A DNA stretch of 64,000 bases from Candidatus Latescibacterota bacterium. Its GTDB lineage: Bacteria; Latescibacterota; UBA2968; UBA8231. Positions 54,519 to 63,850 of this stretch are shown here, in pieces. The position numbers were made by a program, and so were the translations under genes. The stretch spans positions 544,001 to 608,000 of the forward strand of contig CBDCDC010000002.1 in the NCBI GenBank assembly GCA_965215195.1, in the 5' to 3' direction. The stretch's first letter is position 1; each line of letters begins with the position of its first letter. The notes beneath the pieces were generated by a model that was given only the letters and a program-made list of their open reading frames with translations, did no database searches and had not been told where the DNA came from.

Positions 54519-54546
54519 ATGTCTTATAAGGATGATTATGTCAATC
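54519..54546 (+). other. dif-like Xer site 1
   Basis: ATGTCTTATAA-GGATGA-TTATGTCAATC (11-6-11), overlapping the leuS RBS and start. Confidence 0.65.
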
Positions 54547-57420
54547 AAAAAAAAAGGCCAATACAATTTCCAAGCCATCGAAACCAAATGGCGATCTCAC
54601 TGGGCGCAGGAGAAGACCTATCAAACGCTGGGACCGGGGGATCCCGGCTTCGATAACAGCAAACCCAAGTGCTACATCCTCGATATGTTTCCCTATTCAA
54701 GCGGCGCCGGGTTGCACATCGGCCATCCCAAAGGGTATATCGCCAGCGACATTTACAGCCGCTACAAAAGGATGTGGGGGTTTAACGTCCTGCACCCGAT
54801 GGGGTTCGACAGTTTTGGATTGCCGGCCGAGCAATACGCCATCGAACACAATGTCCATCCAGCGACCTTTACCGAGCAGAATATCGCTGCGATGCGCAGC
54901 CAATTGCAGTTTCTCGGGCTGTCGTTTGACTGGGCTCGCGAAGTGGTCACGTCGCGGCCGTCGTATTACCGCTGGACGCAGTGGATTTTCGCCCAACTCT
55001 TCGATAGCTATTTCGACGCAGACGAAATCTGGGAAGACGGCAATGGACGCCAAATAAAGGGGCGGACCAAGCCCATCGCCGACTTAGAGGCGCAATTTGC
55101 GGCCGGCCGGGCCTTGTCGGCCACAGATCGCCAAGTTCTTGGCAGCGACGCGGTTTGGTCTGCACTAACCGAGGCCGAGCACCAAACGGTGCTGAATAAC
55201 TACCGGCTGGCGTACCAGCAAGAGGCTGTCGTCAACTGGTGCCCTCGCTTGGGCACTGTGTTGGCCAACGAGGAGGTGACCAGCGAGGGCCGCAGCGAGC
55301 GGGGCAATTTTCCCGTGTATCGCAAACCGTTGCGGCAATGGACGATGCGCATAACAGCCTACGCCGAGCGGCTCTTAGAGGACTTGGACCTTGAACTGGA
55401 AGACCGCGCTGGCGAGCCCTTCCGGATCGATTGGCCAGAACCCATCAAGCGGATGCAGCGCAACTGGATCGGCCGCAGCGAAGGGGCTGAAGTGCGCTTC
55501 GATGTCCTCGATCCGCAAAGCGACGTGGTCGCCGCGCAGTTGCCCGTGTTCACCACCCGGCCCGACACGCTCTTTGGGGCGACTTTTATGGCCATTGCCC
55601 CTCAGCATCCGCTGGTAGATCCTGCCAAAGAATCCTACTTGGTCCCCAAGGCTTGGCCCGACGGGACGCCCGAACAGTGGAAGGGGGGAGGGGACCTCAT
55701 CCGGGAAGCCGTAGCCCAGTACGTAGCTCAAACGGCCGTCTCCACCGCGGATGAAACCAAGGAAAAAACGGGCATTTTCTCCGGCATCTACGCCCGCAAT
55801 CCGGTCAATGGACAAAAAATCCCCATTTTCGTCGCCGACTACGTCAGCATGGACTACGGCGCGGGAGCCATTATGGCGGTGCCGGCCCACGACGAGCGCG
55901 ACTTTGCCTTCGCCATCACGTATAACTTGGATATTGTGCGGGTGGTTGATGGGGGGGAAGGGGAGGCCGCAGGGTGGTATGCCGGGGAGGGAATCGCCAT
56001 CAATTCGCCTTCAGTACTCGCCAGCGATAGTCCATACACCATTAACGGATTGGCGACGGCCGCGGCCAAAGACCAGATCGTCGCTGCACTCGCTGCCCAA
56101 GGGCGAGGCCAAGCTGCGGTAAACTACAAACTGCGCGACTGGACCTTTGCTCGGCAGCGCTATTGGGGAGAACCCTTTCCACTGGCCACGCATCCCGATG
56201 GATATTCCGTCAAAGTCACGCCTCCGGTGGCGCTACCGGCACTAGAGGACTTCAGGCCGGAGACCTCGGATGACCCCGCCCAACCCGTTTCTCCGCCGCT
56301 GCACCGGGCCGGAGCGGAGTGGACGACGGTGGAAATTGACGGGGTGGCCTGCCAACGCGATCTCAACGTCATGCCCCAATGGGCCGGTTCTTGCTGGTAC
56401 TATCTCCGCTTTATCGATCCGCACAACGAAGAAGCCTTCTGCGACCCGGCCAAGGAGGGCTACTTCATGCCCGTTGATCTCTACATCGGCGGTGCGGAAC
56501 ACGCGGTGTTGCACTTGCTCTACGCCCGGTTTTGGCACAAGGCCCTCTACGACTTAGGCCACGTATCCACGCCCGAGCCGTTTAAGAAGCTGTTCAATCA
56601 AGGCATGATGACCGCGGATGCCTTTCAGGACGAGCGCGGCGTGTATATCGACATTCGGGAGGTTGAGTTCCGCGACGGGGAGCCTGTTGAGAAGGGGACG
56701 GGCAAGACGCTGCATCGGTCTTCTGGCAAGATGGGCAAACGCTACAAAAACGGATTGCCGCCCGAAGAAGTCGGCGAGGAATTTGGCGTGGATACCCTGC
56801 GGCTGTACGAAATGTACATGGGGCCGCTCGAAGCGAGTGCGCCGTGGAGCATGGAAGGCATTCGCGGGATGCAGCGCTTTTTGCAGCGCATTTGGCGCAA
56901 CTTTGTCGATTCGGATCGACAGGTGAAAATAGGGGAGAGTGCTGCGTTAGTGCCGGAGTTGGAACGCAAGCTGCACCAAACCATCCAAAAGGTAACTGAG
57001 GACATAGAAGGGCTGCGGTTTAATACGGCTATTGCCACCTTGATCGAGCTAAACAACCTGTTGGTCCCCTTGGACGAGGTGCCGCAGGCCGTCGCCAAGC
57101 CCTTCTTGCTCTTGCTCGCGCCCTTTGCTCCGCATATTGCCGAGGAGCTATGGGAGTTGGCGAATTTTGGGAAGGGAGACCTCAATCGTCAGAGCTGGCC
57201 TGACTGGGATGCCGCAAAAGCCGCCGAGGACATGATCGTAGTGCCCATTCAGGTCAACGGCAAAATGCGCGGACAAGTCGAAGTGCCGGTCCACACCGGA
57301 GAGGACGAGATAAAGTCCTTGGTGCTCGCCATGGCGAGCATCCGCAAATACGTGGCCGATGAAACGGCGATAAAGCGGTTTATATGGGTGCCGGATAGAA
57401 TCGTCAATATCGTGGTGTAG
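54538..57420 (+). CDS. leuS: Leucine--tRNA ligase
   Basis: MFPY.SG.GLHIGH, FTTRPDT, YIGGAEHAVLHLLY, KMGKR (KMSKS variant). Confidence 0.98.
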   Translation: MSIKKKGQYNFQAIETKWRSHWAQEKTYQTLGPGDPGFDNSKPKCYILDMFPYSSGAGLHIGHPKGYIASDIYSRYKRMWGFNVLHPMGFDSFGLPAEQYAIEHNVHPATFTEQNIAAMRSQLQFLGLSFDWAREVVTSRPSYYRWTQWIFAQLFDSYFDADEIWEDGNGRQIKGRTKPIADLEAQFAAGRALSATDRQVLGSDAVWSALTEAEHQTVLNNYRLAYQQEAVVNWCPRLGTVLANEEVTSEGRSERGNFPVYRKPLRQWTMRITAYAERLLEDLDLELEDRAGEPFRIDWPEPIKRMQRNWIGRSEGAEVRFDVLDPQSDVVAAQLPVFTTRPDTLFGATFMAIAPQHPLVDPAKESYLVPKAWPDGTPEQWKGGGDLIREAVAQYVAQTAVSTADETKEKTGIFSGIYARNPVNGQKIPIFVADYVSMDYGAGAIMAVPAHDERDFAFAITYNLDIVRVVDGGEGEAAGWYAGEGIAINSPSVLASDSPYTINGLATAAAKDQIVAALAAQGRGQAAVNYKLRDWTFARQRYWGEPFPLATHPDGYSVKVTPPVALPALEDFRPETSDDPAQPVSPPLHRAGAEWTTVEIDGVACQRDLNVMPQWAGSCWYYLRFIDPHNEEAFCDPAKEGYFMPVDLYIGGAEHAVLHLLYARFWHKALYDLGHVSTPEPFKKLFNQGMMTADAFQDERGVYIDIREVEFRDGEPVEKGTGKTLHRSSGKMGKRYKNGLPPEEVGEEFGVDTLRLYEMYMGPLEASAPWSMEGIRGMQRFLQRIWRNFVDSDRQVKIGESAALVPELERKLHQTIQKVTEDIEGLRFNTAIATLIELNNLLVPLDEVPQAVAKPFLLLLAPFAPHIAEELWELANFGKGDLNRQSWPDWDAAKAAEDMIVVPIQVNGKMRGQVEVPVHTGEDEIKSLVLAMASIRKYVADETAIKRFIWVPDRIVNIVV

Positions 57421-57442: not shown

Positions 57443-57470
57443 AAGTCTTATAAAATTTTTTATGTAAATA
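57443..57470 (+). other. dif-like Xer site 2
   Basis: AAGTCTTATAA-AATTTT-TTATGTAAATA. Confidence 0.75.
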
Positions 57471-57492
57471 AAAAACAAAGACAAAAAACCCC

Positions 57493-58473
57493 TCAGCTAC
57501 CAATACCAATCCTAATATAATCCGACGCATTATCGAGCAGTTTATCGCGGTTCTCGTAGTAGCGCATGGTCGTCTTTAGATCCTTGTGGCGCAAATGGGC
57601 TTGCACCTGCTGGGGCTTGGCCCCGCCTTCAATCGCCAAGGTGCAGCAGGTGTGGCGGAACATGTGCGCGGTGACGTTTTGGGGGAGGCCGGCGCGCAGG
57701 GCGTACTTCTTGACGATGTGATTTACCGACTGATCGGTTAGTGGCTGGCCGCGAGACTGGTTGCGCGACAGGCTGATGAAAACCTTGCCCGTCGTCGGCA
57801 AGCCCGCTGCTCGTAGTTGTTGTTTGTATAGTTCGAGATGATGCAGGACGACGCTTTGCAGTTTGATTTCCTGCGCCATGCCCGATTTAGTCTGGGGCAG
57901 GTGCAAAATGTAAAAGACGCCCTCCAAAGATATATCCTCCCAAGCGACGCCCGCCACTTCGGAGCGGCGCAGCCCACCGAAAGTGAGCAACTGAAACATA
58001 GCCGCATCGCGCGTACGGACCAAGTCGTCTTTTTCCTCGGCAATGGCTTGCTGGATCTTGTTCAGCACCTGATTGGAAAGTGCTTTGCCGGCCAGCGTTT
58101 CATCTACCTTGTAACCGCGCACCAAGGTGGAGTCGGCGGGATTTTTCTCGATGTGGCCCAAGGCGACCAACATCTTGAAGAACGACTTTAGGCTGGATAA
58201 TTTTCTGTTGATGCTGCTGCGCTTGTAACCTTCGCTGGCGAGTTGGTTTCTAAAGGCGACCACGTGCTCAAAGGTGATTGACTGCAAGACAGCGAGGGAC
58301 ACTTTATCCAGTTCCAAGCCGATAGATAAAAAGAAATGCTGGAGATCGGCGTAATAGGCACGCCGGGTGCGCTCGCTGAGCTGGCCGCTGAGAAATTGTT
58401 CCAAAGGATCGTCTGACGCCACCGCGGGTGTTGGCGTCAGACTGCGGACGACCGGAGTGAGTGTGCGGCTCAT
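57493..58473 (-). CDS. Tyrosine recombinase (Xer-like, not canonical XerC/XerD)
   Basis: SAM-like N-domain (TRRAY..DL; SINRKLSSLKSFF), GLRRSEV, TKSG, HMFRH, HLRH, TTMRY catalytic set. Confidence 0.95.
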   Translation of the reverse strand: MSRTLTPVVRSLTPTPAVASDDPLEQFLSGQLSERTRRAYYADLQHFFLSIGLELDKVSLAVLQSITFEHVVAFRNQLASEGYKRSSINRKLSSLKSFFKMLVALGHIEKNPADSTLVRGYKVDETLAGKALSNQVLNKIQQAIAEEKDDLVRTRDAAMFQLLTFGGLRRSEVAGVAWEDISLEGVFYILHLPQTKSGMAQEIKLQSVVLHHLELYKQQLRAAGLPTTGKVFISLSRNQSRGQPLTDQSVNHIVKKYALRAGLPQNVTAHMFRHTCCTLAIEGGAKPQQVQAHLRHKDLKTTMRYYENRDKLLDNASDYIRIGIGS

Positions 58474-58596
58474 TGAATATGCTTACAGGGGCTAAAGGTC
58501 TGAGGCATTAAATATCCGGGATGTTCTTAACAGTGGCTAAAGAATAGAGTAAATATAGCGAACATCGCGGCATTTTGCTGTCGATTCGCCTAGACA

Positions 58597-58632
58597 TTAT
58601 ACTACCGATAACAGGCATTATCGGTAGTATAA
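58597..58632. other. Perfect palindromic recombinase crossover-type site
   Basis: TTATACTACCGATAA-CAGGCA-TTATCGGTAGTATAA; 15-bp perfect arms and an asymmetric 6-bp spacer. Confidence 0.85.
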
Positions 58633-58654
58633 ATCGTAAAAAAATAAAAGTCAA
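58626..58654 (-). promoter_or_regulatory. Sigma70-type promoter of the recombinase, overlapping the palindrome
   Basis: Minus strand TTGACT-17 nt-TATACT. Confidence 0.75.
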
Positions 58655-58893
58655 TGAGAGCGAGACAAAGACATGTAACGTCGGCTGGATTGGTCTGTTG
58701 GTGTTGGCCTTGGTTTCGGTGTGGCGTGGTTTCCTTGGCGGCGCGTCAGCTTCTCGCTGCGTCAAGGCATCGAACTGTCATACAAATATGCCTCCAACGT
58801 TCCGCCGAAGCCCGAACTTGACCATTCACATAGGTTTTCCTTGGGCGTTCCGTCTATGCGCCTACTTGCGCTCGTCCATTTTTAGTTGCAGCC

Positions 58894-60666
58894 CTATAAC
58901 TTCTGCAACAAACGCTCCATATCGCGCAACTTCATCCGCGCCATGATCGGCTTGTCCGTCGGGCTTATGTGCGGCCGGTCAACCTTGAGCAATTCGTCGA
59001 TCAAATGCGCCATTGCCTCGGCGTTCAGTTTCTGCCCCTTCTTGATACTCGCTTTGCGCGCATAAGCCAAGACGAGTGCTTCGCGCCAAGATCGGCCCGA
59101 ATGCTGGCCATCGCGCACGTCGTTCAATAGCTGATAAAAAGCATCGCCTTCGCCAAAGCGATCCAATTCGGCGGGCATTGCCTCCACCAACACCGTCCGC
59201 GTACCAAAATCCCGCACGCCAAAGCCCAGCTTGGCAATGTCGGCCCGCACTTGCTCGAAGACCGCAAAATCCGCTGCGCCCATTTCTAGCTGGATGGGAA
59301 AGAGCAACTGCTGACTCTCGCCAGCCACGCCGTCCATTTGCGCCATGGCCCGATCGTAGTTGATGCGCTCGTGCGCGGCCTGCTGATCGACGAAGAGCAA
59401 GCCGTCGGCAACCTCGACGAGGATGTACTGGTTGTGGACCTGCCACATCGCGGCGTTTTCGACCAAGGCGACTTTGGCCGCGGCCGGGGCGACGAAGGTC
59501 AAGGCGAGTTCGTCGTCTGCACCGTGGGTTGCTGCTACCGCGGACTCGCCAGGTGCGGCCGGGCTGTGCAACACCGGCGACGCTGGTTCGCCCACGCGGG
59601 CCGTAGCACTGGGAGGTGTGCTGTCCGGCCGCATTGGGGCCGCAGCATAGACAAAGGATTGCACATCGGGCAGCCTGAGCTTCTGCCGGACGCTGTCTTC
59701 AATGGCCGCGATGACCTGCCCTTCGTTGGCCAAGCGAATCTCCCGCTTTGTCGGATGGACATTGACATCGATCTTCTTGGGATCCATATCGATCCAGAGC
59801 ATGAATACCGGATGGTGTCCTTCGGGCAGCAGCCCCTCAAAACACCGCTGTACAGCACTGGCCATCAGTCGCGAAGAAATGGGCCGCCCCTGTACGATGA
59901 GGTACTGCTTGCCCTTGCTCCGGCCGCAGTGCTCAGGACCAGCCAAGACGCCTTCGATTTTGAGGCCCTCTTCCTCATAAGCGAGATCCAACAGTTCGGC
60001 GGCTGGATCAGCCCGGCCTCGCATGCCCAACAACTCGGCCGCCCGCTCCCGACGAGGTGCCGGGGCGTAGCTCAATACTTGGTGCGCTTGGTGCGCTAGT
60101 TCAAAGCCAAGGGCCGGGTAACCGGCGGCTAAATGAATGATGGTCTGGGCCACGTGCCGGGCTTCCGCCTCGACGGAGCGGAGGAATTTGCGCCGCGCCG
60201 GCGTATTAAAAAACAAGTTCTTTACCGCGATAGTCGTGCCGCGTACGCGGCCCATGCTGTGCATCTCTCGCTCTATGCCCCCTTCCACGACCAAGCGCGT
60301 CCCGACTTCGTCTTGCTGGGTGCGCGATTCTATCGCCAAGTGAGCCACCGCCCCAATGCTGGCTAGCGCCTCGCCGCGAAATCCCAGCGTCTGAATGCGA
60401 AATAGGTCGGCCACCGAGGCCATCTTGCTCGTGGCATGACGGCGCACACACAAAGCGATATCCTCCCTGTTCATGCCCGATCCATCGTCGGTCACCACAA
60501 TCGACTGCTTGCCACCGGCCTTAATTTCCACGCGGATTTTAGCAGCGCCCGCATCGATCGAGTTTTCGACCAATTCCTTCACGACCGAGGCCGGCCGTTC
60601 CACCACCTCGCCAGCGGCAATTTTGCCAATGAGACTTTCGTCGAGAACGCGAATGGTACTCGCCAT
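58894..60666 (-). CDS. mutL: DNA mismatch repair endonuclease MutL
   Basis: IAAGEVVERPASVVKELVENSIDA, TLGFRGEAL, DVNVHPTK, DQQAAHER; C-terminal Zn-ligand motifs diverged (ASIK, HISP). Confidence 0.97.
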   Translation of the reverse strand: MASTIRVLDESLIGKIAAGEVVERPASVVKELVENSIDAGAAKIRVEIKAGGKQSIVVTDDGSGMNREDIALCVRRHATSKMASVADLFRIQTLGFRGEALASIGAVAHLAIESRTQQDEVGTRLVVEGGIEREMHSMGRVRGTTIAVKNLFFNTPARRKFLRSVEAEARHVAQTIIHLAAGYPALGFELAHQAHQVLSYAPAPRRERAAELLGMRGRADPAAELLDLAYEEEGLKIEGVLAGPEHCGRSKGKQYLIVQGRPISSRLMASAVQRCFEGLLPEGHHPVFMLWIDMDPKKIDVNVHPTKREIRLANEGQVIAAIEDSVRQKLRLPDVQSFVYAAAPMRPDSTPPSATARVGEPASPVLHSPAAPGESAVAATHGADDELALTFVAPAAAKVALVENAAMWQVHNQYILVEVADGLLFVDQQAAHERINYDRAMAQMDGVAGESQQLLFPIQLEMGAADFAVFEQVRADIAKLGFGVRDFGTRTVLVEAMPAELDRFGEGDAFYQLLNDVRDGQHSGRSWREALVLAYARKASIKKGQKLNAEAMAHLIDELLKVDRPHISPTDKPIMARMKLRDMERLLQKL

Positions 60667-60672
60667 ATATCC

Positions 60673-61197
60673 TCACAACTCGGCCCAGAGCCGCTCGGCC
60701 TGCTGCCGGAATTCGGCTTGGGTAATTTTGCCTTGTTTGAGCGCGGTTTCCAAGTCGCGCAAGCGGCGGCGCGGCCCCCCGCCCCCTTTGAGATCCAGCC
60801 GTATTTGGGACCAGATGTGCCACCCCCCCACGCCGAGCAACAAGGCCATGAAGACCGCCCCTACCCACCACGAGGTATCTTGCTCGTGGCGCACCGCTCC
60901 CCCCTTTTGTCGCCAATCTTCGGCCACGGCTGGGTCAGGCTCGGCCAGCGCGATCCGCTTGGCCAGTGCCGCGCCGTTGGTCCCTTGGACGCGCACGGCC
61001 CTTTTGAGCTGCCAAGTAAATCCCCGGGGTTGCACGATTAGATACTCGATGAGATCGGCCTTTCTTATCTGATCGAACTGCTCCCTAGTAACCGGCACGA
61101 TCATTGGGCTGAGCATATTGAACAGCAACACGATTGCTAACAAGAAGCTCGCTAAGCCGAGAGCGAAGTATGTGGGCGGTGTGGATGACTTTTTCAT
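60673..61197 (-). CDS. Two-TM membrane protein with SHOCT-like C-terminus
   Basis: TM helices at both ends of a soluble loop; LRDLETALKQGKITQAEF. Confidence 0.7.
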   Translation of the reverse strand: MKKSSTPPTYFALGLASFLLAIVLLFNMLSPMIVPVTREQFDQIRKADLIEYLIVQPRGFTWQLKRAVRVQGTNGAALAKRIALAEPDPAVAEDWRQKGGAVRHEQDTSWWVGAVFMALLLGVGGWHIWSQIRLDLKGGGGPRRRLRDLETALKQGKITQAEFRQQAERLWAEL

Positions 61198-61201
61198 TCT
61201 T

Positions 61202-61229
61202 TGTTTACATAAAAAATTTTATTGGACAT
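61202..61229 (-). other. dif-like Xer site 3 (inverted relative to site 2)
   Basis: Minus strand ATGTCCAATAA-AATTTT-TTATGTAAACA; 24/28 identical to site 2. Confidence 0.75.
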
Positions 61230-62017
61230 TATTTTACTTGCTTGCGATTTAAGACCGCGTCTTGTCTCGCCGACGTGCGCATCCATTCCAAGAGGCGATA
61301 GCTTTCGCCCACCTGCCCCAAACCCAATAACGGCTGGGCGTGCCCTTGGATACAGGCGACGAAATTGCGATAGTACGCCGCCAGATCGTCCGCTTCCCAC
61401 GCCCAAGGCCAAGACGCATCGACTATTTCGTCCTGTGCATATGAGCGGATCCGCAAAGCCGGGGCCACAGCCGGAAAGTCGAAGAGCGCAACCGAGCCTT
61501 CGACGCCGTTGCGCATCCTCAGCAGCGCGAGCGACACATCCTCCATGCGCCCGGGATGAAAGAAGTTGCGCATCCTGCTGTACAGCACATCTACCGGCCC
61601 CCAAGTGCTCACCAGCAGGTCGCATACGTCCAAGATCGCTTGGTTGCAGATCGTCTCGCGGTCGATGGGATCGAAGGAAGCCGAATCAAAAGAAAGCTCT
61701 AAGGAGTAATGCGCTACGCCTCGTCGGGCGGCCAGAGCCGCGCAAAAGCGCGTATGCCGCCCCAAGGACAGCACACCTACATTCGGATGGCTACCCTGTA
61801 CGGGATGGGTCGCCATAACGTGCAGACCGACCGCTGTGGCCACGCCGATCCAGTGCGATTTATCGTCCACGTGTAACAGCACTAGCCCATCTATTTCTTG
61901 CTCCAAAACCGCGGCGCAGTCGGCTTGGTGTACGAGCTGGATATCGCAGCAACCCCGCAAGGCACCCCGATGGGCGGCTACCTCGCGGGCATGGCCTACC
62001 ACGCCGAGCGTCATCAT
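61229..62017 (-). CDS. Degenerate Gfo/Idh/MocA-like oxidoreductase-fold protein
   Basis: LGVVG start, GLHV...P, DLL...GPV, ED.....L....G..G, F..CI.G...P. Confidence 0.55.
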   Translation of the reverse strand: MMTLGVVGHAREVAAHRGALRGCCDIQLVHQADCAAVLEQEIDGLVLLHVDDKSHWIGVATAVGLHVMATHPVQGSHPNVGVLSLGRHTRFCAALAARRGVAHYSLELSFDSASFDPIDRETICNQAILDVCDLLVSTWGPVDVLYSRMRNFFHPGRMEDVSLALLRMRNGVEGSVALFDFPAVAPALRIRSYAQDEIVDASWPWAWEADDLAAYYRNFVACIQGHAQPLLGLGQVGESYRLLEWMRTSARQDAVLNRKQVK

Positions 62018-62952
62018 GTCTTACCCGCCTTAATCCGCTCGCGGAGCCGCTCGCTAAACGCCTGCGCTGCGTGCGCTCCCTCCAAGCGCAAGAGGTAATC
62101 CATCGCTATAGTCTCGGCGAGTACCGTGATATTTTTGCCGGGAAACAGCGGTATGAAGACCTCGGGCACCTCAACGCCGAGGATTACCACCTTATTGTCT
62201 TCGAGGCCAAGGCGTTCGTATGCGTATTTTTCGTCCCAATCAACTAGGTTGACCAATACCTCCACCCGCTTCTGTCGGCGAGTCCCCCACACGCCAAACA
62301 TCTTTTTTACGTCTAGGATGCCAATGCCGCGAATTTCGATGTGGTCTTGGAGCATCTCCGAGCTGCGCCCCACCAAAATGCCTTGGGGCTTGCGGTTGAT
62401 GATGACCATATCGTCGGCCACCAACCGATGTCCGCGCTCAACCAAATCCAAGGCGACCTCGCTTTTGCCAATGCCGCTGCGGCCGCGAAAGAGCAGCCCT
62501 ACCCCAGAGACATCGAGCAGCGTCCCATGCACGGACACTTGGGGCGCGAACACCTCGTCGAGGTAAAAGCGGATGAGATGGGTAAACTCGGCTGTGTTGA
62601 ATTCGGACTTCAGCAGTGGCACCGTGCATTCGTCGGCTAGCTGCCGCAACTCGGAGTACACGCGCCCCCGACCGGTCCAGACCACGCAGGGAATATCGAA
62701 TTGATATATGATTTTGAGGGCCTGTCGCCGTCGCTCTGAGGATAAGCTGCACAGGTACTCCGCTTCGGTATTGCCCAAGAGCTGCACTTGATCTAAGGTG
62801 AACAACTCAACGAAGCCGGTCAGGGCCAAGCCGGGGCGATGGATGTCGCTGTTGTTGATGGTCCGCTGTACCCCCTTGGCACCGGCGATGAGCTTCAGCC
62901 GCAGTTGCTGCCCGTAGGTAGCTAGCAGATCTTTGATGGCCAGTTCACTCAT
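62014..62952 (-). CDS. hprK: HPr kinase/phosphorylase
   Basis: HRPGLALTG, VHG.LLDV.GVG, G.SGIGKSE.AL.LV.RGHRLVADD, EIRGIGI. Confidence 0.97.
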   Translation of the reverse strand: MSELAIKDLLATYGQQLRLKLIAGAKGVQRTINNSDIHRPGLALTGFVELFTLDQVQLLGNTEAEYLCSLSSERRRQALKIIYQFDIPCVVWTGRGRVYSELRQLADECTVPLLKSEFNTAEFTHLIRFYLDEVFAPQVSVHGTLLDVSGVGLLFRGRSGIGKSEVALDLVERGHRLVADDMVIINRKPQGILVGRSSEMLQDHIEIRGIGILDVKKMFGVWGTRRQKRVEVLVNLVDWDEKYAYERLGLEDNKVVILGVEVPEVFIPLFPGKNITVLAETIAMDYLLRLEGAHAAQAFSERLRERIKAGKT

Positions 62953-63850
62953 CGCTGCGCAAGCTTTCGAAGATGCGCCGGTATCCTTCGTAGCGCACCG
63001 ACGCTACCCGGCCGGCCGCCACAGCCGTGCGAACCGCGCAACCGGGTTCGTGCAAGTGGCTGCAATCGCCGAATTGACACTGGCCGAGCAGAGGTTCTAG
63101 CTCGGGATAATACGTCTCTAGCTCAGCGGATTTTACTCCCCATAAGCGGAGCTCTTTAACCCCTGGCGTATCGGCCACATAGCCGCCTTGTTGCAACTTG
63201 AACAAATGCACGGCCGCGGTCGTGTGCCGGCCGCGGTCATGGCGCTTCATTATTTCCTTTGTCTTTAGTCCCAACCCCGGTTCGATGCCGTTGAGCAAGG
63301 TCGATTTGCCGACCCCAGACTGGCCGATCACGGCCGTGCTGCGATTGAGCAGGGCCTCTTTGAACGCGCCCATGCCATCGCCCCGCACGGCACTGGTGCG
63401 ATAGATTGGATAACCGAGGGCCTCGTAGGGCGCACTTAGGGTGTTCACGGCCGCTGCGGACGCTAAATCGACCTTGTTGATGCAGAGCACGGGCTGGAGA
63501 TTTCCCTTGGCGGCCATGACAATCGCTCGCTCGATAAAGCCGCGGCGGGGCCTCGGTTGGCGAGCGGCCACGACGACGACCACTTGTTCCATATTGACAA
63601 CGAGGATCTGCTCAAACGGGCGCGTCCCACTGGCCCCGCGCGAAAACTTGGAAGATCGGGGATGCACTGCTTCGATGACGCCCGTCCGTTCGGCCGTAGG
63701 CGCGACATCGACCCAGTCGCCGGCCGCGACCGGGGAACTAGTCTTGCGACATCCTGCCTTGAGGCGGCCCCTAATCTCGCATTGCCAGTGGCTTTGCTCA
63801 ACCTCGACGAGGCACTGTAGCCCAGAGACTCTGATGATGCGGCCCTGCAT
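62945..63850 (-). CDS. rsgA: Small ribosomal subunit biogenesis GTPase
   Basis: NKVD, GQSGVGKS, GRHTT, DTPG, CQFGDCSHLHEPGC. Confidence 0.96.
   Translation of the reverse strand: MQGRIIRVSGLQCLVEVEQSHWQCEIRGRLKAGCRKTSSPVAAGDWVDVAPTAERTGVIEAVHPRSSKFSRGASGTRPFEQILVVNMEQVVVVVAARQPRPRRGFIERAIVMAAKGNLQPVLCINKVDLASAAAVNTLSAPYEALGYPIYRTSAVRGDGMGAFKEALLNRSTAVIGQSGVGKSTLLNGIEPGLGLKTKEIMKRHDRGRHTTAAVHLFKLQQGGYVADTPGVKELRLWGVKSAELETYYPELEPLLGQCQFGDCSHLHEPGCAVRTAVAAGRVASVRYEGYRRIFESLRSDE

Follow-up and report, generated by a model that had tools for sequence, protein, structure and literature searches.

Can the block of DNA that carries the only mutL gene of a genome described as sponge-type Latescibacterota be turned over in the chromosome, and to what effect? 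The question is raised by a locus in the window, the whole stretch of 64,000 nucleotides that was analysed, which corresponds to C2:544001-608000 of a 6.13-Mb two-contig genome (the records of its relatives are titled Candidatus Latescibacterota and, for some, Gemmatimonadetes). At this locus mutL, the gene of an Xer-like tyrosine recombinase (here called XerX) and a gene for a membrane-type protein lie between two inverted sites of the dif type. An original prediction, made from the letters alone, had regarded the segment as an invertible cassette that could act as a recombinase-controlled mutator switch. The analysis shows that this piece of the chromosome is indeed invertible and sits at the replication terminus, and makes it highly probable that it is flipped by Xer-type inversion between duplicated dif sites. 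The segment and its two bounding sites are as follows.

57443-61229: the mutL cassette, the whole invertible segment, bounded by sites 2 and 3.
57443-57470, + strand: site 2, AAGTCTTATAA AATTTT TTATGTAAATA (outer arm, spacer, inner arm), the left cassette boundary.
61202-61229, - strand: site 3, ATGTCCAATAA AATTTT TTATGTAAACA, the right cassette boundary.

Sequence comparison confirmed that sites 2 and 3 are inverted and identical at 24 of 28 positions (four differences), with equal spacers AATTTT and the TTATGTAAA (D-like) arms facing inward, as had been predicted. A 19-mer, ATAAAATTTTTTATGTAAA, occurs at 57450-57468 (+) and at 61204-61222 (-); no further copy with up to three mismatches was found in the window, and none of 100 shuffles gave two matches. 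The longest inverted pair of the region returned by a repeat search (31 nt, 87% complementary, 57445-57475 and 61197-61227, 3721 nt apart) falls at the same positions. Both sites have the 11-6-11 layout of dif, with arms ending ATAA and TTAT around a 6-bp spacer. Over 46 junctions from 25 same-genus genomes the consensus is ATGTCTTATAA-N6-TTATGTAAATA, with arms that are mostly invariant (positions 4-5, 9-10 and 19-25 entirely so) and a spacer that varies freely at positions 12-15 and 17; constant arms around a free spacer are read here as the pattern of a recombinase site. Five complete genomes from another family of the same class hold one site each, of the form nnnnGGTATAA-GNTNCA-TTATGT(A/C)AACT, and the inner arm is accordingly the ordinary dif arm of the class. 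No XerX homologue was matched in these five at E<=1e-20.

The position of the sites was then set against the replication structure of the chromosome. Whole-genome cumulative GC skew, computed for the window genome, peaks at C2 0.58-0.60 Mb and has its minimum at 3.5 Mb, and at 1-kb resolution the peak falls at about 59000 of the window, inside the cassette. Gene direction changes from + to - at site 2. The cassette locus is the replication terminus. A search of the 6.13-Mb genome for the core ATAA-N6-TTATGTAAA with at most one mismatch gave five matches, all within C2:598526-627698 (29 kb) and all within 29 kb of the skew maximum; they run + + and then - - -, each pointing toward the cassette. 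To our knowledge dif is generally treated as a single-copy site. Here there are two near-consensus copies and three weaker ones, and the presence of more than one copy is what makes the locus unusual.

Relatives carry the cassette in both orientations, so that the predicted invertibility was borne out. Among 12 complete same-genus genomes compared by tblastn synteny, eight have the window orientation and four the inverse, with the flanks unchanged. When contigs of public genomes were added, the 25 species-level genomes divided 15 to 10, another locus being too short for a reading, and an extra same-genus metagenome contig, inverted, gave 15 window-type and 11 inverse (n=26). A dif-type site is found at each junction, in both orientations, wherever sequence is available, and it is within the sites that the breakpoints are located. 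Where the cassette is inverted, leuS is followed directly by the membrane gene and mutL, which is the layout foreseen by the claim that inversion would move mutL from behind the hprK operon to behind leuS. The surroundings are stable: aspS adjoins leuS in the same orientation in every locus showing both (three outgroup loci have pnp next to leuS and no aspS match), the right flank keeps its order and its orientation with respect to leuS throughout the genomes compared, and the 44 related loci show no further rearrangement of the neighbourhood. Unrelated recombinases, namely the 26%-identity loci L074-L076 and also L107, were left out of all counts, and L062, L103 and L104 were too short for an orientation call.

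The history of these orientations was followed on trees built with a 'quick' method, from genomes that are related and not independent samples. A maximum-likelihood tree of the flank genes (leuS+hprK+rsgA) requires at least six orientation changes, and a tree of the cassette genes requires seven over all rows and six within the genus. Forcing the inverted genomes into one clade costs 1400 log-likelihood units (approximately unbiased test, p-AU 0.0005), by which a single origin of the inverse orientation is rejected; this test, made on the cassette genes, also speaks against a single donor of the region for all inverted genomes. Sister groups of opposite orientation are L053/L056, L050/L051, and L047 versus L049+L069. 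Shuffling of the orientation labels gave a mean of 8.0 changes, with P(<=6) of about 0.10; orientation thus has little phylogenetic signal, being close to random, and flipping appears to be fast relative to species divergence. Segment 57443-61229 is accordingly read, on the comparison of these genomes, as a cassette that has been inverted at sites 2 and 3 recurrently in the history of the genus.

Outside the genus the picture is uniform. All 18 of the more distant loci with readable orientation (61-81% recombinase identity) have the window orientation. A dif-like site lies between the recombinase 3' end and leuS in 14 of the 17 outgroup loci covering that stretch, and a site directly upstream of the membrane gene was found in none of the 13 outgroup loci covering the corresponding stretch. 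Inversions are therefore confined, among the loci seen, to the clade in which the membrane gene has site 3 beside it. Three loci of a single outgroup clade hold an inverted second site upstream of the ORF (open reading frame) of 262 amino acids next to the cassette, bracketing a larger block (L071:2442-2469, L097:1463-1490 and L106:1159-1186); these loci are not flipped and show the window orientation.

The relatives suggest that ancestrally a single dif stood next to the XerX gene. In this genus another copy, inverted, would then have arisen directly upstream of the membrane gene, and flipping would have followed. The ends of the cassette are inverted dif-type sites, each made up of an 11-bp XerC-type outer arm, a 6-bp spacer and an 11-bp XerD-type inner arm (TTATGTAAA). 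An Xer-family tyrosine recombinase would pair sites 2 and 3 and exchange strands and, because the sites are inverted, the block of recombinase, mutL and membrane gene would flip. What a flip would do depends on the genes of the cassette and its flanks.

54532-57420, + strand: leuS, the left flank, with Pfam leucyl-tRNA synthetase domains; it converges on the cassette.
57493-58473, - strand: tyrosine recombinase XerX, 326 amino acids, Pfam PF00589 (1e-27) and PF02899.
58597-58632, no strand: palindrome 15+6+15, a perfect inverted repeat.
58894-60666, - strand: mutL, 590 amino acids, Pfam MutL_C, DNA_mis_repair and HATPase_c_3.
60673-61197, - strand: membrane-type ORF, 174 amino acids, function unknown.
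61229-63850, - strand: the right flank, comprising the 262-amino-acid ORF, hprK and rsgA; it converges on the cassette.
62014-62952, - strand: hprK, in the right-flank operon.
62945-63850, - strand: rsgA, in the right-flank operon.

Gene calls and Pfam matches place the recombinase, the palindrome, mutL and the membrane gene between sites 2 and 3, in agreement with the predicted contents. The mutL gene is single-copy (one PF01119 match in the 6.13-Mb genome), and mutS is encoded elsewhere. Its reading frame is open and intact in the window, where the full frame was checked, and in every genome compared, whichever the orientation, the match to mutL covers about the whole gene. Site 2 starts 23 bp past the end of the recombinase ORF, beside the 3' end of that gene. 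Site 3 lies 4 nt upstream of the membrane-gene ATG, and its outermost base overlaps the stop codon of the 262-amino-acid ORF (61229-61231), leaving 31 bp to the membrane-gene start (61197). Since rsgA, hprK and the 262-amino-acid ORF abut or overlap at their ends, and since those 31 bp are nearly all site 3, the part of the original prediction that saw site 3 as the sole separator between this operon and the tail formed by the membrane gene and mutL holds; the description of that tail as promoterless has less behind it, the lack of a sigma-70-like match on the minus strand of the 31-bp gap being weak evidence.

The operon upstream of the membrane gene and mutL is rsgA-hprK-262aa in the window orientation and aspS-leuS in the inverse. 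Because the flanks run toward each other, one housekeeping operon always stands upstream of the cassette and is transcribed in the same direction, and the cassette is likewise co-directional with one replichore. Through this symmetric geometry a flip would swap upstream transcription and replichore membership and break no gene. The flip is judged to be mostly a tolerated by-product of dif duplication, which may have at most a graded effect on the expression of mutL and the recombinase; co-directionality in both orientations makes an on/off mutator switch unlikely.

A number of results weigh against Xer-type inversion between the duplicated sites, and concern the place of the exchange, the spacers, the sites, the enzyme and the sequencing runs. 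Taken over all junctions, positions -14, -13 and -4 track the flank and positions 17-18 track the cassette end, so that the exchange is placed in the outer arm or in the spacer. Three sister pairs show the spacer and inner arm remaining with the cassette end; a variant at outer-arm position 6 does so too in L050/L051, where the event is thereby confined to some 6-7 nt at the site's outer edge. The crossovers appear to lie in or at the outer arm and not across the spacer, a placement for which a one-sided exchange, at the outer arm, or recombination through short homology would account at least as well as a complete two-step exchange. The one-sided exchange is a known Xer pathway. The unbroken identity between the two junctions in flipped pairs is only about 12-20 nt, and this argues against RecA-type recombination as a general cause. 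At the L050 junction on the side of the 262-amino-acid ORF there is also a 4-bp duplication, TAGA, just outside the site of this inverted genome when compared with the sister L051; it could be a rearrangement footprint or simple slippage. A second, overlapping core (ATAA-AATGTC-TTAT) at the outer edge of the site was considered for L050/L051 and rejected, as its outer ATAA is not conserved on the leuS side.

Fifteen of 21 genomes have unlike spacers at their two sites, and flips have occurred also in lineages whose present spacers are unequal. In the pdif sites of Acinetobacter plasmids, recombination was seen with identical spacers or with one spacer mismatch (PMC13141974). Identical spacers were found in 6 of the 21 genomes, including the window genome, L042, L043, L050, L055 and L058, with 2.1 expected from between-genome shuffling (P 0.008, a value that overstates the case as the genomes are related), an excess which suggests that the two sites of one genome may exchange sequence. 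Three genomes have a degenerate site at the recombinase end: in L054 (G008) it is absent, with a leuS-recombinase gap of about 30 bp; in L044 (G001) it has a 7-nt spacer; and in L064 (G018) it has six arm mismatches and a degenerate outer arm. The only consensus dif of these genomes is the membrane-gene-proximal copy, so that either copy apparently can serve.

Sites of the dif type are bound and recombined by XerC/XerD or by a single Xer, with FtsK as activator, and the acting enzyme here could be XerX, the canonical XerC/XerD, or both. Besides XerX the genome encodes a canonical XerD (346.7 bits, cut-off 329.6) and an XerC-like protein (318.3 bits, just below the cut-off of 335.15), which could act on dif-type sites, a circumstance that leaves the 'recombinase-controlled' element of the original prediction a candidate. 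Finally, 22 sequencing runs with Logan contigs were found, of which four were compared (X2, X4, X5 and X7); the one RNA run contained a fraction of 0.05 of the sequence words. No strand-changing joint was reported in the contigs of these four runs, a weak test because contigs drop minority forms, and one X5 contig spans the whole stretch in the window orientation. Contigs of X2 and X4 are interrupted at the palindrome and at both sites or close to them, as a repeat, a strain variant or mixed orientation would each bring about.

Other explanations were weighed against the same body of evidence. A programmed mutator switch, that is, a selected and frequent phase variation that toggles the transcriptional context of mutL and the recombinase and thereby modulates the mutation rate, is in our view unlikely. 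It would make sense of a sole mutL inside the cassette of a genome that has mutS, of a membrane gene and mutL that follow an operon after 31 bp without a sigma-70-like match and follow leuS in inverted genomes, of two sites conserved across the genus, of an orientation close to random on the tree and of the identical spacers in the window. However, no off state is offered by a cassette that stands behind a co-directional housekeeping operon either way, with mutL matched at about full length everywhere compared; the unequal spacers in 15 of 21 genomes do not suggest selection for frequent switching; the recombinase has a promoter-like region of its own that is conserved; and no mixed population was found in the contigs of the four runs, weak as that test is. 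The regulated switch of the original prediction is therefore not upheld by the geometry, by the intact mutL of the window or by the spacers. It is similarly doubtful that the paired inverted dif sites at the terminus form a natural bet-hedging toggle of the transcriptional and replicative context of mutL and the recombinase, coupled to chromosome-dimer resolution at division; if they did, symbiont populations would hold subpopulations of differing mismatch-repair capacity.

It is quite improbable that the inversions were independent of any site-specific recombinase, arising as rare RecA-dependent or template-switch events between short AT-rich repeats, favoured at the terminus, with the sites supplying homology only. 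The crossovers do map to the outer arm and flank, the longest identical run of the two junctions, the spacers often differ, and one L050 junction has the TAGA duplication, all of which such events could explain. They would nevertheless have had to produce at least six flips at exactly this pair from about 12-20 nt of identity, with no other rearrangement in 44 loci, and they leave unexplained both the recombinase-site pattern of conserved arms with a free spacer and a recombinase gene that abuts a site in 14 of the 17 outgroup loci covering the stretch and in 22 of 25 same-genus genomes (at most five arm mismatches). A mobile element, whether an Xer-exploiting element or a transposon carrying mutL and inserted at dif in either orientation, would share the inverted-repeat bounds, the tyrosine recombinase and the position at dif, and is rejected on synteny as most improbable, for relatives with as little as 61% recombinase identity still have this block between these flanks, the sister pairs are recovered alike in the cassette and flank trees, mutL is single-copy and inverted sites cannot give excision.

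Xer-type inversion at duplicated dif sites has several known systems to be compared with. The SpyCI element found at the mutL gene of Streptococcus pyogenes has the character of a phage-like island, able to integrate and to excise. The analogy drawn with it in the original prediction is sound as a theme, in that site-specific recombination would bear on the expression of a mismatch-repair gene, and fails in substance, as the cassette is an ancestral chromosomal block with nothing mobile about it and its operon is uninterrupted. The fimS element with FimB/FimE is a case of a tyrosine recombinase acting reversibly on short inverted repeats, and hsdS shuffling in pneumococcus reportedly also proceeds by reversible inversion by a tyrosine recombinase at short inverted repeats. 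Those systems flip a promoter or swap coding segments, giving on/off states or alleles, whereas here whole intact genes are turned over between convergent operons; on models of Fim-type invertases XerX scores 39.8 bits against a cut-off of 221.

With the chromosomal dif of E. coli and B. subtilis the locus shares the site layout, the position at the GC-skew switch and the presence of a canonical XerD and an XerC-like gene in the genome, along with an inner arm of the TTATGTAAA type, which we take to resemble the dif arms of those species. It departs from them in having two near-consensus inverted copies 3.7 kb apart, more dif-like sites nearby and a third Xer-like gene abutting a site. In experiments with extra dif copies in E. 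coli, directly repeated sites reportedly delete the DNA between them. The closest parallel is the dif module of Acinetobacter plasmids, of which the cassette would be a chromosomal counterpart. There, inversion between inversely oriented pdif sites was shown experimentally, by PCR and reads, with a minority form of 8% (PMC13141974). The Acinetobacter sites are also of 28 bp and 11-6-11, with a very similar inner arm, TTATGTTAA where TTATGTAAA stands here, and inverse pairs bracket modules; the present block is likewise bracketed by inverse XerC/D-type sites with XerD-type inner arms. The differences are that the cassette is chromosomal, exactly at the terminus, and a single module of housekeeping genes (the sole mutL) with its own recombinase, that its flips were deduced from comparison of species and not within a culture, and that its spacers are often unequal. 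Whereas such modules move between plasmids, this block keeps its place, with the same chromosomal flanks in every one of the 44 related loci.

The adjacency of recombinase and site recalls xerS-difSL of streptococci and lactococci, in which the recombinase gene is directly beside dif, 'acting as a single module' (PMC5357621). The XerX gene almost always abuts a dif-like site in the same manner, but difSL is 31 bp with an 11-bp centre and is served by XerS alone, in contrast to the 11-6-11 sites and XerC/XerD homologues found here, and on the XerS model XerX reaches 79.7 bits against a cut-off of 267. A literature search, which does not prove that none is in print, found no account of chromosomal dif sites in inverted pairs or of a mutL cassette able to invert. 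The lineage is a natural one that keeps two conserved inverted dif copies at its terminus and in which a 3.7-kb block with an essential-class repair gene has flipped repeatedly. It is a natural setting in which one could ask what Xer enzymes carry out inversion, and what degree of spacer identity this demands, and in it the sole mutL is placed where division-tied recombination could change its context.

XerX itself has the catalytic residues R169, H270, R273, H296 and Y305 in alignment. Its NCBIfam scores (XerC 136.9 bits, XerD 125.8 bits) are both far below the cut-offs. There are 303 homologues at E<=1e-20, and identity among the 120 matches listed is 61-90%. In the same-genus relatives some 14-90 bp separate the site from the end of the recombinase match in tblastn; the gene abuts a site with at most five arm mismatches in 22 of the 25 genomes. 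A fourth tyrosine recombinase, of 355 amino acids and with weak XerC/XerD similarity, is encoded at G000:C2:323003-324070, about 280 kb from the terminus.

The palindrome at 58597-58632 (TTATACTACCGATAA CAGGCA TTATCGGTAGTATAA) has 15-bp arms around a 6-bp centre and the form ATAA-N6-TTAT. As DNA it folds with -17.8 kcal/mol (z -5.56), and it overlaps a sigma-70-like promoter of the recombinase, TTGACT-17-TATACT, at 58654-58626 (-), with a match of 10/12. The genome has a single copy of it, and throughout the genus a related palindrome has been conserved ahead of the recombinase gene. It is probably an operator, and possibly a binding site of the recombinase. The genus also conserves, downstream of the palindrome and still ahead of the recombinase gene, the motif CTATATTTGG, which outgroups have too. 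The intergenic region between mutL and the recombinase (58474-58893) measures 420 bp, compared with about 150 bp in most same-genus relatives, which implies about 270 bp of extra sequence, of unknown origin, in the window genome.

The three weaker dif-like sites lie outside the cassette.

54519-54546, + strand: site 1, dif-like, ATGTCTTATAA GGATGA TTATGTCAATC, overlapping the leuS start.
C2:610776-610803 (L080:2776-2803), - strand: site 4, a dif core match beyond the window.
C2:627678-627705 (L080:19678-19705), - strand: site 5, a dif core match beyond the window.

The spacer of site 1 is unlike those of sites 2 and 3, and site 1 is outside the invertible unit; it recurs where leuS begins in ingroup and outgroup loci alike, including outgroups whose leuS is 71% identical. 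Ten of the 12 complete relatives retain site 4, some 5.5 kb past site 3. In B. subtilis, several dif-like sites scattered over the terminus region (PMC11840125, PMC10945525), the XDS sites, are bound by XerD and unload SMC. By analogy, the five terminus sites in 29 kb may be an array of XerD-binding, XDS-like sites, a likeness that applies to sites 1, 4 and 5 and not to the inversion. Sites 1, 3 and 4 stand at gene starts and in gene direction: the leuS ATG is inside the inner arm of site 1, and the ATG of a 170-amino-acid ORF overlaps the end of site 4, which holds a perfect TATAAT. Such sites may double as promoter or leader sequences. That they are nothing other than ordinary promoters for leaderless mRNAs was not adopted as the main explanation, as site 2 has a gene end on either side, the 8-nt core TATGTAAA does not vary and every match falls in the cluster at the terminus.

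The 174-amino-acid membrane protein gave a sub-threshold match to GvpG and otherwise no informative Pfam family, and an NCBIfam search of it returned no match; its nearest Atlas cluster is a 'hypothetical protein' cluster whose commonest phylum is Gemmatimonadota. Its gene adjoins mutL in all relatives with a locus covering the stretch and a match (L067 and L073 show no match). In MutL, the C-terminal motif (around DQQAAHERINYD, in mutL 58894-60666) reads DQQAAHER; endonuclease-type MutL proteins carry DQHA(X)2E(X)4E at this place, so that the third residue would be Q in the window and not H.

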